Source of the DNA: Escherichia coli
Lineage (GTDB): Bacteria; Pseudomonadota; Gammaproteobacteria; Enterobacterales; Enterobacteriaceae
DNA: 64,000 bases
Assembly: GCA_022969815.1 (NCBI GenBank)
Contig: GCA_022969815.1_4535.1
Strand: one strand, 5' to 3'
The notes beneath the pieces were generated by a model. That model did not search any database. It worked only from the letters and a program-made list of their open reading frames with translations, and was not told the DNA's origin. Positions 56,256 to 62,541 of the stretch are shown here, piece by piece (positions within the stretch are counted from its first letter, which is position 1; each line of letters opens with the position of its first letter). The position numbers were made by a program, and so were the translations under genes.

Positions 56256-56284
56256 ATTATCTACCAACGTGATCCCTATGTCAA
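56256..56284 (-). promoter_or_regulatory. sigma70-like promoter (minus strand) with GGATC in spacer
   Basis: minus strand TTGACA-tagGGATCacgttggta-GATAAT. Confidence 0.5.
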
Positions 56285-56289
56285 GCTAT

Positions 56290-56802
56290 TTATTCAAAAT
56301 AAACTTTAACTTGTGCCGTGCTGTAGCGATTGTAAATCTCGACCACGGCTTTAGCGTTATCTTCTTTATAGGATTGTGCCAGATCTTCCGCATCTCGGAT
56401 ATTTCCGGCAACGCCCACAAGAACAAGATCCACCATTACAAGATATTTTTTATCTTCTGGACTCTCTTGAGAAGGCTCTTGTACTGGCTCTTCCTTTGGT
56501 TCTGGTGGCAAACCAACCTCTGCCTCAACATAAGAGTCAAACCAAGTGATATCGTTAAAATGCTTTAACTCATGTTTGGACAGCAGCATACCACAATCAA
56601 CGAAAGCACCTGCATTAGCTTCAAAGACATGCCCTTCAAATGTTTGGAACTTAACCACATCCCCTTTTTCTGTTGTCTCCAACACCAGGAAGTGTTTTGG
56701 ACCCAGCAGATCTGAAATCTTTCGGTTCAGATTGACAGCTTCACGGAACGCATTGTACTCTTTTGTATTTTTGAATTTATAGGAATGCCCTTGAATAAAC
56801 AT
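56290..56802 (-). CDS. hypothetical protein; tandem paralog of 56815..57333
   Basis: shared N-terminal MF.xG..Y.F and C-terminal VD.V.V ... VEIY ... ST pattern. Confidence 0.55.
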   Translation of the reverse strand: MFIQGHSYKFKNTKEYNAFREAVNLNRKISDLLGPKHFLVLETTEKGDVVKFQTFEGHVFEANAGAFVDCGMLLSKHELKHFNDITWFDSYVEAEVGLPPEPKEEPVQEPSQESPEDKKYLVMVDLVLVGVAGNIRDAEDLAQSYKEDNAKAVVEIYNRYSTAQVKVYFE

Positions 56803-56814
56803 AATAGTCTCCTC

Positions 56815-57333
56815 TTAGTCAAATATCACATTACTTACGAGTTTCGCTGTGCTACGCAGAGTATAAATCTCCACAAGCTTCCCTGGACTCTCTTTCTTCG
56901 CTTTCGTGGCTCTTTCTTGTGCCTCTGAAAAAGATGATACAGTATGCACTACTACGTAGTCAACAATAACTGCAAACTTTTTAGGCACAATATCTGCATC
57001 AGGGCGATCGTCGTGCGCGGAAACATCCTTACCTGGCTGCGGTGCCAGCGGCGGCAAGCCTACCATTAACAACGGACCTCCGTCAAAGAAATATCCGATC
57101 TCATCATGTCCAATAAGGAAGCGATCCATTTGAGCATCACCTACTCCTTGATCCCAAAACAGCTTCTTATCTTCTACGAAGATGATAAGAGATAGGACAT
57201 TCCCGTAAGCGTCTGTTTTGACTACTTCAAACCAAAACTCTCCGATCGCTTCAGCCAACTTTTTAGAAATTGATTGAAACAACTCTTGGTAAGTGCCTTG
57301 TCTGAAACGATAGATATTACCTGGTTTAAACAT
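56815..57333 (-). CDS. hypothetical protein; tandem paralog of 56290..56802
   Basis: see paralog pattern; AAGAGGAGA SD. Confidence 0.55.
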   Translation of the reverse strand: MFKPGNIYRFRQGTYQELFQSISKKLAEAIGEFWFEVVKTDAYGNVLSLIIFVEDKKLFWDQGVGDAQMDRFLIGHDEIGYFFDGGPLLMVGLPPLAPQPGKDVSAHDDRPDADIVPKKFAVIVDYVVVHTVSSFSEAQERATKAKKESPGKLVEIYTLRSTAKLVSNVIFD

Positions 57334-57355
57334 TAGTGTCTCCTCTTATGTTAAA

Positions 57356-57814
57356 TTATTGTTCTACTTCACGCAACCACGCTAAAGCCTCTTCTGGAGA
57401 TTTATCGAAGTCGTTGAGCAGTTCCTGCTCCAACTCCTCTTTCATTTCATTTAGCACTTGTAGTTGACGTGCCTTTTTCCACAAGGCTACACGATAATCA
57501 ACACCTTGTGGTGCTTCTTCTGCCACTTTTACATTACCTGTCGGGCAGCGAGGAAGATAGTCTTCAATATCTTCCAAGGCACGGCGATAATTGGGGTCCA
57601 TGTAGTTCACACGAACACGATTACATTCTAACAAAGTGGCACGGAACACTTCATAACGTGTTTCGGATAGAATGTGTTTCACACAGACAGCACCAGTATC
57701 TTCTGAAATTACACTATACACTTCCAGTAGGCTGGAGTTTCTCTTGACATAATCTGTAACACATTGCACATATGCTCCCAATATTGTGGAAGCTCTCACT
57801 GGTTTTTCGCTCAT
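57356..57814 (-). CDS. hypothetical protein (152 aa)
   Basis: ORF with GGGGAGGTAG SD. Confidence 0.55.
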   Translation of the reverse strand: MSEKPVRASTILGAYVQCVTDYVKRNSSLLEVYSVISEDTGAVCVKHILSETRYEVFRATLLECNRVRVNYMDPNYRRALEDIEDYLPRCPTGNVKVAEEAPQGVDYRVALWKKARQLQVLNEMKEELEQELLNDFDKSPEEALAWLREVEQ

Positions 57815-58050
57815 TTTCTACCTCCCCATAATGCCACCATTTTATTAAAGATGGAAGCGCGTCGTGCGCGAGATGCTAACATACGATTGGCTTCTTCGTA
57901 GCCATCGAACAAACGATCTGTCAATACCAACGCCAGTGTCTTCTCTTGCAGAGACTGGCAATTATGTTCAGGACGACAGTCGTGCCCTGCATCGAAGTAC
58001 AGATTGTTCAGATAATTGTTTGCTCTCTCATTCTGCTTTGCAGTGATCAT
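57811..58050 (-). CDS. hypothetical protein (79 aa)
   Basis: ORF with AAGGAAGAG SD. Confidence 0.5.
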   Translation of the reverse strand: MITAKQNERANNYLNNLYFDAGHDCRPEHNCQSLQEKTLALVLTDRLFDGYEEANRMLASRARRASIFNKMVALWGGRK

Positions 58051-58059
58051 ATCTCTTCC

Positions 58060-58290
58060 TTAGTGAACAATTTCATATTCATGAGGAAGGAAAACATAAT
58101 CTTCCCCTTCACCTGCATCTTCTTCATCCCAGAAGAAACCTGGTATCTCAATCATCTTCGAAAAGCGCACATGCGCCAACCCACTATACCCTATCTGTGC
58201 ATTCAGCACAACGGGTAACTCTGCACCAGTCAGACCTACATACCCGCAAGCGGTTTCAATACGAATTTTCATACGTTTCATGTTATGCAT
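58060..58290 (-). CDS. hypothetical protein (76 aa)
   Basis: ORF, coupled to neighbours. Confidence 0.5.
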   Translation of the reverse strand: MHNMKRMKIRIETACGYVGLTGAELPVVLNAQIGYSGLAHVRFSKMIEIPGFFWDEEDAGEGEDYVFLPHEYEIVH

Positions 58291-58492
58291 CTTTCATACT
58301 CTCCATGAAGTGACGAGCAACAGGGTTCCCGTAGAAATATTCATTGATGAAATCGATCACACACGTTTCACTGCCTGTCACAACGGACGGTGCGAAGTTT
58401 CGGAACTGCACGAGTACACGACTTGCGTTAGCAAGGGTGTGCACACGATCAGTGTTAGCTAAATACAAGGATACAGTTTTCATATTTGACAT
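58283..58492 (-). CDS. hypothetical protein (69 aa)
   Basis: ORF with GAGGAGATTG SD. Confidence 0.5.
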   Translation of the reverse strand: MSNMKTVSLYLANTDRVHTLANASRVLVQFRNFAPSVVTGSETCVIDFINEYFYGNPVARHFMESMKDA

Positions 58493-58551
58493 TTCAATCT
58501 CCTCATTGGCTATCTGTTATGCGCGGTATGCAAACCACTATACAGACATTT

Positions 58552-61220: not shown

Positions 61221-61224
61221 TCAA

Positions 61225-61644
61225 TTATAACGCTTCATATATTGAGTAGATCCGGTTTGCCAGGTCATTACGAAAGCGGAATTTTTCATCACGTTTAATC
61301 ATCAGATCCTTAAAACCGCATTCTTTCAATGCTTCGTTAACTTTACTGCGGCATACTTTCATATTGTCCTGCGCGTCACCAATAAACTTATTGCTATGAT
61401 GCATTGCTTTGATCTCTTCCTCCAGGACCAGGGCAACTACACGGATCGGATCAAGCTGATACGCGGTAACATCCATGCGGCATTGTAAACGGCTTTTAAC
61501 GTCTGCCACCGGATATACTGCAACCTCTTCCCCGTCAACGTTCACGATAACCAGTTTACCATCAATTTCGAAGCCTTTCGCGGCGCTACCGTGGCAAAAA
61601 GCGTTATCGAAGGAGTAAGCCGGATTATTTGATTTAATGTTCAT
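61225..61644 (-). CDS. hypothetical protein (139 aa)
   Basis: ORF with AAAGGACAAC SD-like, own promoter and terminator. Confidence 0.5.
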   Translation of the reverse strand: MNIKSNNPAYSFDNAFCHGSAAKGFEIDGKLVIVNVDGEEVAVYPVADVKSRLQCRMDVTAYQLDPIRVVALVLEEEIKAMHHSNKFIGDAQDNMKVCRSKVNEALKECGFKDLMIKRDEKFRFRNDLANRIYSIYEAL

Positions 61645-61689
61645 GTTGTTGTCCTTTGTTTCGTTTCGTTGTTTGCTGCCAGTGAGTTA

Positions 61690-61718
61690 AATATAATATA
61701 ACGCCGATCCCCTGTCAA
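61690..61718 (-). promoter_or_regulatory. sigma70-like promoter (minus strand) with GGATC in spacer
   Basis: minus strand TTGACA-ggGGATCggcgttatat-TATATT. Confidence 0.5.
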
Positions 61719-61750
61719 TAGGGGATAGCGCATTATTTACATTTCTTTAC

Positions 61751-61777
61751 GTTAAAGGGCGCTTAGTGCGCCCTTGT
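61751..61777 (-). terminator. terminator-like hairpin (near copy of 61183..61220)
   Basis: GGGCGC-ttagt-GCGCCC; T-run weaker. Confidence 0.45.
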
Positions 61778-61783
61778 ACAATC

Positions 61784-62152
61784 TTACTTTGTGCGGTTGT
61801 AAACGTTATCGCGTTCAACCATCAAAGCAAGGCGGATCAGTTGATCAGTTGTATCGCGTAAGCTGTCAGGCCATGTTTTATTGTTCCAGCTATCTAAATT
61901 TGATTGAATATAGGTTTCAATGGCTTGATCCATATTGTCGAACAAGTTTGCCTCCAGGCTCTCGGCTGTTTCACACTGGAAAGCATCAGCGACACTATTA
62001 ATCAATAAGCAAGCCAGTAAATCAGCGTTGCGCCAATTTTTACGGATAGTTTCATCTTTCAGATAACCAACGAGATCAACCTTTGCGCCAGTGGTGGACG
62101 TTGCGATCACTTCTTGCGCTTTTTCAACTGCTTTAATTGCTGATTTGCTCAT
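61784..62152 (-). CDS. hypothetical protein (122 aa)
   Basis: ORF with AGAGGAAAG SD. Confidence 0.5.
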   Translation of the reverse strand: MSKSAIKAVEKAQEVIATSTTGAKVDLVGYLKDETIRKNWRNADLLACLLINSVADAFQCETAESLEANLFDNMDQAIETYIQSNLDSWNNKTWPDSLRDTTDQLIRLALMVERDNVYNRTK

Positions 62153-62230
62153 TTTACTTTCCTCTTTGTGGGCTTGCTGTATTGCTCGCCCTACGCAATA
62201 ACTATAAGTTAACAGGGTATATAAAGCAAG

Positions 62231-62464
62231 CTATTTTTTATAAAATTTTTCTGCTGTGATATTCTTCCCTGTAGGCTTAACCGCTTGCAAGATCTTATCA
62301 TGTGCCGAACGTCCAAAAGAATAAGATCCGTACACGGTAAACCAATAATCGCCATTGGGTTGCACGGTTACGGCGGCGTATGGTATGCCTTTTTCATTGT
62401 CACCGATAAAGTGTGAAACATTGCCGTTAACATTGGGTGTAGTGCTTTTAATTTGTCCGATCAT
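62231..62464 (-). CDS. hypothetical protein (77 aa)
   Basis: ORF with AGGAATAAC SD preceded by 5' hairpin. Confidence 0.5.
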   Translation of the reverse strand: MIGQIKSTTPNVNGNVSHFIGDNEKGIPYAAVTVQPNGDYWFTVYGSYSFGRSAHDKILQAVKPTGKNITAEKFYKK

Positions 62465-62512
62465 GATGTTATTCCTATATTAGACGGGAAACATTCCCGC
62501 CCTACGTGATAA

Positions 62513-62541
62513 ATAATAATATAAGGGTGATCCGGTGTCAA
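62513..62541 (-). promoter_or_regulatory. sigma70-like promoter (minus strand) with GGATC in spacer
   Basis: minus strand TTGACA-ccGGATCacccttatat-TATTAT. Confidence 0.5.

Follow-up and report, generated by a model that had tools for sequence, protein, structure and literature searches.

The question raised by this locus is why three near-consensus promoters on the same strand should all carry a GGATC, and with it a Dam site, beside the -35 hexamer. The window analyzed here, that is, the whole 64,000-nucleotide stretch, is Phapecoctavirus DNA with ~97% identity to coliphage phiWec190. The arrangement described in the earlier note, TTGACA followed 2-3 nt on by GGATC and then by a -10 hexamer at 17-nt spacing, was found exactly so at all three minus-strand sites, referred to below as P1, P2, and P3, which are listed here with the genes that follow them:

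P1 promoter, 56256..56284, minus strand: TTGACA at 56284-56279, spacer tagGGATCacgttggta (17 nt), GATAAT at 56261-56256, GGATC at 56275-56271
P1 gene, 55925..56224, minus strand: 99 aa, phrog_15686, function unknown
P2 promoter, 61690..61718, minus strand: TTGACA at 61718-61713, spacer ggGGATCggcgttatat (17 nt), TATATT at 61695-61690, GGATC at 61710-61706
P2 gene, 61225..61644, minus strand: 139 aa, phrog_12277, function unknown, Vequintavirus counterparts sharing 89% identity or more
P3 promoter, 62513..62541, minus strand: TTGACA at 62541-62536, spacer ccGGATCacccttatat (17 nt), TATTAT at 62518-62513, GGATC at 62533-62529
P3 gene, 62231..62464, minus strand: 77 aa, phrog_9227, function unknown

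Each -35 hexamer is a perfect TTGACA (6/6 consensus matches) and each -10 hexamer (GATAAT, TATATT, and TATTAT, respectively) matches TATAAT at 5/6 positions, giving a consensus score of 11/12 for every one of the three, all with 17-nt spacers. All three are intergenic, with a same-strand ATG-start ORF and its ribosome-binding site 30-50 nt downstream, and the matching coding sequences are annotated in phiWec190. The GATC falls at about -26 to -22, 3-4 nt past the -35 and 9-10 nt short of the -10, outside both hexamers. Judged by these features, P1-P3 would be real, ordinary sigma-70-type early promoters. They resemble the sigma-70 early promoters predicted in rV5-like and phAPEC8-like phages (PMC3606486; JX561091), which are likewise near-consensus (TTGACA-N16-18-TATAAT), likewise precede small early genes, and are likewise read by unmodified host RNA polymerase; host-type promoters seem to be relied on genome-wide in these phages (PMC3606486). 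P2 and P3 differ in not being annotated as promoters in phAPEC8 and Schickermooser, the relatives whose records carry regulatory features here, and the rV5 paper does not mention the shared GATC (the string 'GATC' is absent from its text; PMC3606486). For this phage group, our literature search covering transcription and methylation returned nothing relevant besides these rV5 promoter predictions (PMC3606486), and Rfam matched only tRNAs in the window.

The shared GGATC exceeds what base composition predicts, as the earlier note had supposed: TTGACA-N2-3-GGATC is observed three times in the window vs. 0.13 expected, none of 100 dinucleotide shuffles contained three or more such matches, and the looser pattern TTGACA-N1-5-GATC is observed four times vs. 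1.2 expected. Over the genome, GATC shows no overall enrichment (376 observed vs. 364 expected under a maximal-order Markov model). The proposal that the GATC promoters form a non-random subset was likewise borne out, with six of the ten GATCs located within -45 to +20 of 33 phiWec190 promoters sharing a single 3-nt window, a number attained in none of 2000 shuffles when GATC was pre-specified. The contrast drawn between the strands held only in part. That is, the named plus-strand promoters at 10891 (TTGACT-N17-TACTAT), 13299, and 34151 all lack a GATC, but a minus-vs.-plus rule does not stand, as the minus-strand promoters at 48901, 48064, and 46330 (11/12) lack it as well.

In phiWec190, six promoters near the genome ends have a GATC 9-11 nt upstream of the -10 (at 10, 10, 10, 10, 9, and 9 nt) vs. 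none of the ~27 other host-type promoters, and these six are consecutive on the genome (131025, 131524, 133254, 134077, 139164, and 146300). The members are P1, P2, P3, promoter F, and two promoters, A and B, just past the window end, A being already annotated in phAPEC8 (JX561091, 'host dependent promoter' features; it maps to position 19429 of locus L005). The sixth member lies in the window:

Promoter F, 48873..48901, minus strand: TTGACA-N17-CATAAT, orthologue of a GATC promoter, here with GGATT

The six look like one promoter lineage, since matches of 7-12 nt around the GATC connect them: P2 and P3 have in common cta-TTGACA-nnGGATCnnCnTTATAT-TAT, P3 and P1 GGATCACGnTT, P1 and F aaGGATC, and A and P3 GATCACC, while A and B are near-duplicates. 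Between paralogous promoters, the surviving similarity always centers on the GATC, the spacer having diverged in its 3' half. The P1 gene is itself paralogous to the F gene (48289-48840) over the C-terminal half of the latter (40% identity, E = 2e-12), and the consecutive genome positions of the six promoters are consistent with local spread. Moreover, the array promoters have other position-specific 4-mers in common, at nearly the level of GATC (e.g., CCTG in five, TTTT in five), which indicates that relatedness alone yields such 4-mer sharing.

We give about an even chance to the hypothesis that P1-P3 are host early promoters of one related core lineage, with the (G)GATC being mainly an inherited signature. 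Under this hypothesis, promoter cores would have spread locally by duplication or exchange between promoter cassettes, carrying the (G)GATC beside the -35 mainly as a lineage mark; P2 would be the oldest member, in which the GATC is built, as one of the arms, into an inverted repeat enclosing the -35; and the GATC would be at most weakly constrained, with the existence of the promoter being independent of it. We infer common descent of the GATC, as opposed to a regulatory role of its own, from the consecutive positions, the GATC-centered matches, the paralogous P1 and F genes, and the similar sharing of other 4-mers, as well as from GATC losses that left promoters intact, a non-significant difference between alignment columns, and the lack of a phage DNA methyltransferase (all three described below).

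The orthologues examined came mostly from GenBank phage records, with IMG/VR contributing three loci (protein query) and ~5 relevant contigs (cassette-pattern scan). P1 is confined to the window, phiWec190, and the lineage of L004, the closest metagenomic relative; P2 is kept in nine Phapecoctavirus and five Vequintavirus sequences; and the GGATC of P3 is invariant in ~15 genomes of two genera (including Justusliebigvirus), with variable flanking bases. The GATC is thus retained in nearly all orthologues, across two genera for P3 and two subfamilies for P2. It has been lost twice, namely in F, where ten other genomes have GGATC vs. GGATT in the window, and in promoter A of L004 (cTAATAa), and both promoters are otherwise intact. 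Variation is greatest in the bases adjoining the GATC on either side (e.g., cA/cC/cG-GATC-g/a/c in A-type promoters and cc/cg/ca-GGATC-A/G in P3), and the conserved core excludes the first G of GGATC, given the AGATC, CGATC, and GGATC variants of the A type. Further, aaGGATC is kept in P1 and F even though their genes are only 40% identical. Together with the excess over composition and the GATC-centered similarity, the variable flanks and this last case suggest that the GATC itself may be under some selection, while a hand count of variable columns (~3/20 for GATC vs. ~21/65 for the rest of the spacer) gave a difference that is not significant.

E. coli hosts normally carry Dam, and an alternative hypothesis, which we consider unlikely, is that the GATC at about -26 to -22 is a substrate of host Dam and that its methylation state tunes the promoters near the genome ends as a separate temporal class, with infecting DNA being fully methylated and rapidly replicated DNA hemimethylated or unmethylated. 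The restriction of the kept core to GATC, its fixed distance to the -10, and its persistence amid varying flanks across two genera would fit this hypothesis, as would the location of the six promoters, which flank an ORF-free region with the reported genome ends (PMC6563267). In addition, the DNA of these phages appears to be unmodified, based on their exceptional sensitivity to restriction (PMC8594841), so host Dam could act on it. However, the methyltransferase-like genes that the earlier note had attributed to the phage were not found: ThyX was the only methyl-related Pfam match among 37 window ORFs, and the first 150,000 of the 150,689 bases of phiWec190 gave no match to E. coli Dam by tblastn and contained none of the catalytic motifs searched for (DPPY/NPPY plus FxGxG, and PCQ), and we reject a phage-encoded Dam. 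A simple methylation mechanism fared no better, since the GATC lies in the spacer, beyond the hexamers that sigma-70 reads base-specifically, no second GATC occurs within 31 bp, the GATC was lost from F (window) and A (L004) without loss of the promoter, and purifying selection is not statistically detectable. Specifically, SeqA needs at least two GATC sites separated by about 31 bp at most; each promoter here has one, with the nearest other GATC 57-137 bp away at all six, making cooperative SeqA binding unlikely, and we reject SeqA sequestration. Dam-sensitive promoters such as IS10/Tn10 pIN, dnaA, trpR, phage P1 cre, and Mu mom (via OxyR) also have GATC in the promoter region, but there it coincides with the -35 or -10 hexamer or with the site of a regulator, and experiments have demonstrated dam-dependence, as opposed to the single spacer GATC seen here. 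A more specific idea, that the single GATC acts as an epigenetic sensor by which early promoters flanking the genome ends switch according to the parental vs. new Dam methylation state, strikes us as improbable; if true, it would provide a replication-coupled temporal program in a lytic rV5/phAPEC8-type phage, one that depends on no methylase or sigma factor of the phage's own. A promoter subset marked by Dam sites would lend itself to cheap and direct experiment.

It is also conceivable, albeit distinctly unlikely in our view, that the GGATC segment belongs to a protein-binding site or a DNA/RNA structure, e.g., for a phage or host protein adjoining the -35, or, at P2, a hairpin or dyad operator with the -35 in its loop or center. 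Three elements around P2 and P3 are relevant to their structure:

P2 inverted repeat, 61707..61726, minus strand: ATCCCC-tattgaca-GGGGAT, bracketing the -35, with the spacer GGATC in the 3' arm
Intrinsic-terminator-like hairpin, 61754..61773, minus strand: GGGCGCACTAAGCGCCC+TTT, just upstream of P2, as read from the letters
P3 conserved leader, 62483..62510, minus strand: ATCACGTAGGG, then a 5' hairpin GGCGGGAA-tgt-TTCCCGTC, the leader type of the early promoter array

The P2 repeat is kept in Vequintavirus, with ATCCC/GGGAT arms in rV5 types as against ATCCT/AGGAT arms in CarlMeissner and inoa, one compensatory change affecting both arms, and the 75-nt P2 region folds far more stably than other promoters (RNAfold, -23.4 kcal/mol vs. 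-4 to -11 kcal/mol). Against a structural role, this is a single compensatory event among six distinct sequences, the alifold covariation term is not favorable, and two Phapecoctavirus rows are misaligned by an indel. Further, no ATCC[CT]-N-[AG]GGAT dyad occurs elsewhere in the genome, GATCC-N-GGATC dyads were not found, and folding and the dyad scan revealed no comparable dyad or hairpin at P1, P3, A, B, or F; given this uniqueness of the P2 dyad, we reject a repeated operator. What all six promoters have in common is only 4-5 bp, less than a typical protein site would need. In the phAPEC8 and Schickermooser records, ARNold terminators are annotated at the equivalents of the hairpin upstream of P2.

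Finally, pure coincidence, i.e., a common 4-5-mer falling by chance in three or six promoters, was already disfavored and is highly improbable: although GATC is common (~1 per 170 bp of the genome) and an agnostic test allowing any 4-mer in any 3-nt window gives a P of only about 0.016-0.07, the pre-specified pattern stands at ~23 times its expectation, it was replicated in promoters outside the earlier note (A, B, and F, or 3/~30 vs. ~0.5 expected by hand calculation), and the six promoters form a contiguous set along the genome, with longer matches around the GATC in common.

The rV5-like and phAPEC8-like phages find wide use in phage-therapy collections. If the GATC is merely inherited, as we favor, it would trace the spread of promoter cores among early genes, and P1-P3 would still be defined as probably strong, portable sigma-70 promoters. 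A parallel may be found in T4-type phages, in which PeSLs ('promoter-early stem-loop' elements) were reportedly described by Arbiol et al. in 2010 as mobile regulatory cassettes. The likeness lies in an array, placed in a variable part of the genome, whose small early genes are individually equipped with a sigma-70 promoter and a conserved stem-loop, and the combination of early promoter, conserved stem-loop, and many small ORFs was found for P3 and the array upstream. The differences are that another phage group is involved, that here the transcript carries the hairpin at its 5' end, immediately behind ATCACGTAGGG, and that the cassette type is confined to P3, A, and B, as opposed to P1, P2, and F; the leader motif is absent from the P1 and P2 leaders. 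We rejected the GGATCACGTTGG of the P1 spacer as a displaced copy of the leader motif ATCACGTAGG, the match being 7 nt only and possibly coincidental. As with PeSLs, the promoters appear better conserved than the genes they drive, e.g., for P3 in AV123, in which the promoter region is nearly identical and the gene shares 67.5% amino acid identity.

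Three minus-strand sigma-70-type promoters of the window (P1, P2 and P3) carry GGATC in the spacer, with the sequences that the earlier note had described, and this observation is both confirmed and extended here by three related promoters (A, B and F), the last of which has its orthologue within the window. The features concerned are:

56284-56256, minus strand: promoter P1, TTGACA-tagGGATCacgttggta-GATAAT, 99-aa ORF downstream
61718-61690, minus strand: promoter P2, TTGACA-ggGGATCggcgttatat-TATATT, 139-aa ORF downstream
62541-62513, minus strand: promoter P3, TTGACA-ccGGATCacccttatat-TATTAT, 77-aa ORF downstream
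phiWec190 131025, just outside the window: promoter A
phiWec190 131524, just outside the window: promoter B
phiWec190 146300, orthologue of window 48901: promoter F
L001 (phiWec190) 22800-33300 and L004 (a metagenomic relative) 190-9200, also in loci L006 and L007: early array

P1, P2 and P3 are intergenic, match the consensus at 11 of 12 positions each, and are directly followed by ORFs with an ATG start and a Shine-Dalgarno sequence. That GGATC is no commoner in such spacers than expected does not hold, since the 64 kb hold three copies of TTGACA-N2-3-GGATC vs. 0.13 expected (both strands combined), a count reached in none of 100 dinucleotide shuffles. GATC overall is neither enriched nor avoided (376 observed vs. 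364 expected under a maximal-order Markov model, ~1 per 170 bp). The plus-strand promoters named in the earlier note are indeed without GATC, and so are three minus-strand promoters of the same quality (48901, 48064 and 46330); therefore, strand is not what separates the classes.

By megablast, window 55000-63000 is ~97% identical to Escherichia phages phiWec190 and phiWec188 and 82-94% identical to many other members of Phapecoctavirus, a genus in Stephanstirmvirinae with phAPEC8 as type phage. GC skew and ORFs assign transcription of 38-64 kb to the minus strand; a tRNA cluster (Tyr, Ser, Ser, Arg, Met and one truncated by the window start) lies on the same strand at 1-1176. With phiWec190 (bases 1-150,000 of a 150,689-base record) standing in for the complete genome, a genome-wide scan returned 33 intergenic sigma-70-like promoters with a downstream gene. 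Between -45 and +20 relative to their -10 hexamers these hold 10 GATCs, roughly what the density of the motif predicts. Of these 10, six lie 9-11 nt upstream of the -10, and the promoters that carry them are consecutive on the genome (A, B, P3, P2, P1, F). Pure chance, for which shuffling gives P ~0.016 (33 promoters) or ~0.07 (41 promoters) when any 4-mer at any position is allowed, and 0 of 2000 shuffles with six promoters in a 3-nt window when GATC is pre-specified, appears very improbable. GATC tops the positional 4-mer ranking, with CCTG and TTTT close behind (five promoters each); the latter two recur because the array promoters are mutually related.

The most likely reading, which we hold at roughly even confidence, is that these are strong sigma-70 early promoters of an ordinary kind that form one lineage, in which the GATC would be chiefly inherited. 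P2 and P3 have cta-TTGACA-nnGGATCnnCnTTATAT-TAT in common; GGATCACGnTT occurs in P1 and, displaced by 1 nt, in P3 as it reads in phiWec190; GATCACC links A to P3; and A is almost a duplicate of B. P1 and F have aaGGATC at the same offset as well as similar short leaders. Further, the protein encoded downstream of P1 (99 aa; 55925-56224; phrog_15686) and the C-terminal half of the one downstream of F (183 aa; 48289-48840; phrog_37387) are paralogues, with 40% identity and E = 2e-12, both phrogs being of unknown function. Judged by sequence, these matches and the paralogous genes argue that the six are one promoter lineage; common descent or cassette exchange can account for its GATC. The GGATC core may have originated in P2, as P2 is the only one of the six that Vequintavirus also has.

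P3 (window 62483-62541) is the last cassette of an array of ~20 small early genes that lies just beyond the window end in phiWec190 and all relatives. In front of every array gene stands a separate promoter, in most cases TTGACA-N16-TAAGAT or TAAACT; behind it come a start region that is conserved, (g/t)tATCAC(G/A)TAGGGCGG, and then a 5' hairpin whose stem differs by cassette and is always paired (e.g., GGCGGCAATGGTGCCGCC, GGCGGGAATAGTTCCCGC and GGGGCGACAAGCGCCCC). The array is reminiscent of PeSL, the mobile regulatory cassettes known from T4-type phages, and some of its promoters are annotated 'PHIRE' in the phAPEC8 record.

Orthologous regions taken from ~25 further genomes show how far the GATC is kept. 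All Phapecoctavirus examined retain the P3 GGATC, as does the sister genus Justusliebigvirus (caGGATCAc in Paula and Eryne, ccGGATCGc in AV123), with variable flanking bases (cc, cg or ca before; A or G after). The P3 intergenic region (~130 nt) is nearly identical between the two genera (AV123, L073, and Paula, L070, vs. window 62464-62600) whereas the P3-driven gene in AV123 has only 67.5% amino-acid identity, with higher conservation in the regulatory region than in the gene it drives; the Vequintavirus orthologue of this gene lacks a dedicated promoter. Most Phapecoctavirus have P2 unchanged, and it is also found in many Vequintavirus (including rV5_ev147, CarlMeissner, inoa, phiWec189 and metagenomic contig L002), there with a 1-nt shift, a different 3' spacer half and GGATCGGC kept. 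P1 is limited to the lineage of the window, phiWec190 and L004. A occurs as cAGATCg, cAGATCa and cCGATCc, and B as cGGATCg, so the constant part is GATC, not GGATC. The core is retained where the remaining spacer diverged between paralogues, and its flanks are more variable; by a hand count over the fetched orthologue sets, ~3 of 20 GATC columns vary vs. ~21 of 65 other spacer columns, a trend to conservation that is not significant. Two losses of the GATC, neither of which disrupted the promoter, nevertheless fall in the very lineage studied here: F has GGATC in ten other genomes and GGATT in the window, and A reads cTAATAa in L004, the window's closest metagenomic relative.

This conservation pattern is the one positive sign of methylation-sensitive expression, which the earlier note had put forward as a possibility; direct Dam control of these promoters is possible. 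However, taking the -10 hexamer as -12 to -7, the GATC falls at about -26 to -22, outside the hexamers, whereas classic Dam-sensitive promoters have it inside them. SeqA-type cooperative binding is unlikely, since there is no second GATC within 57 bp of the promoter GATC. The premise of phage methyltransferase-like genes is not supported: ThyX is the sole methyl-related match among 37 window ORFs compared with Pfam, and tblastn with E. coli Dam and a catalytic-motif scan over phiWec190 bases 1-150,000 gave no recognisable DNA methyltransferase. Where the literature mentions methyltransferases, it refers to 'putative' hits within the phage cluster or to Justusliebigvirus BME3. Exceptional sensitivity to restriction systems has been reported for Vequintavirinae and related phages (PMC8594841), which implies ordinary, unprotected DNA, and thus host Dam could methylate these sites. 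On balance, a real Dam-linked role seems unlikely.

Slightly more doubtful still is a structural or protein-binding role of the GATC segment, which would apply mainly to P2. An inverted repeat, ATCCCC-tattgaca-GGGGAT (61707-61726), unique in the genome, brackets the P2 -35, GGGGAT being the 3' arm, and the 75-nt P2 region folds at -23.4 kcal/mol vs. -4 to -11 for other promoters. The arms read ATCCC...GGGAT in rV5-type phages and ATCCT...AGGAT in CarlMeissner and inoa, a compensatory C:G to T:A change that alters both arms and preserves the dyad. However, this is the only compensatory event, and the alifold covariation term is not favourable. Candidate roles for the dyad are a DNA structure, an RNA structure or a protein site. 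Both this role and a Dam-linked one lend themselves to simple tests.

Past the P2 gene and terminator comes a 1.25-kb AT-rich stretch without ORFs (59985-61225); phiWec190, phAPEC8, tuntematon, AV126, nepoznato, vB_Ec-G1 and anhysbys have no CDS annotated there, and it has no Rfam match. Several deposited genomes are opened within it, and the end of the Schickermooser record, a phage with a reported 328-bp terminal repeat (PMC6563267), maps to ~59938. By analogy with this relative, the probable physical ends would have the six GATC promoters within ~3.5 kb to one side and ~11 kb to the other. The stretch also holds four copies of AATGAGAATRATTATYAT and other direct and inverted repeats, for which packaging or replication iterons are a possible alternative to Fur sites; compared by eye, one copy (~60000-60030) agrees in 17 of 19 positions with the E. 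coli Fur-box consensus GATAATGATAATCATTATC.

GGATCC, which BamHI recognises, occurs neither in the window nor in any Phapecoctavirus locus examined, despite 56 GGATC and 68 GATCC in the window; Vequintavirus loci L002 and L003 have two and seven copies, respectively. CTAG is likewise absent from the window (1-64000; ~101 expected by the Markov model, ~237 by base composition) and from the first 150 kb of phiWec190, a lineage-specific absence spanning L058, L059 and L001 (phiWec190), L004 and L051. GGCC (0.37x), CCGG (0.53x) and GTAC (0.59x) are also depleted. CTAG occurs at ~0.4-0.9 per kb in phAPEC8, tuntematon, AV126, nepoznato and Vequintavirus loci, and the relatives' sites are single-base variants in the window (CTGG, CCAG, CTTG, etc.), a pattern suggestive of a restriction site purged recently and completely.
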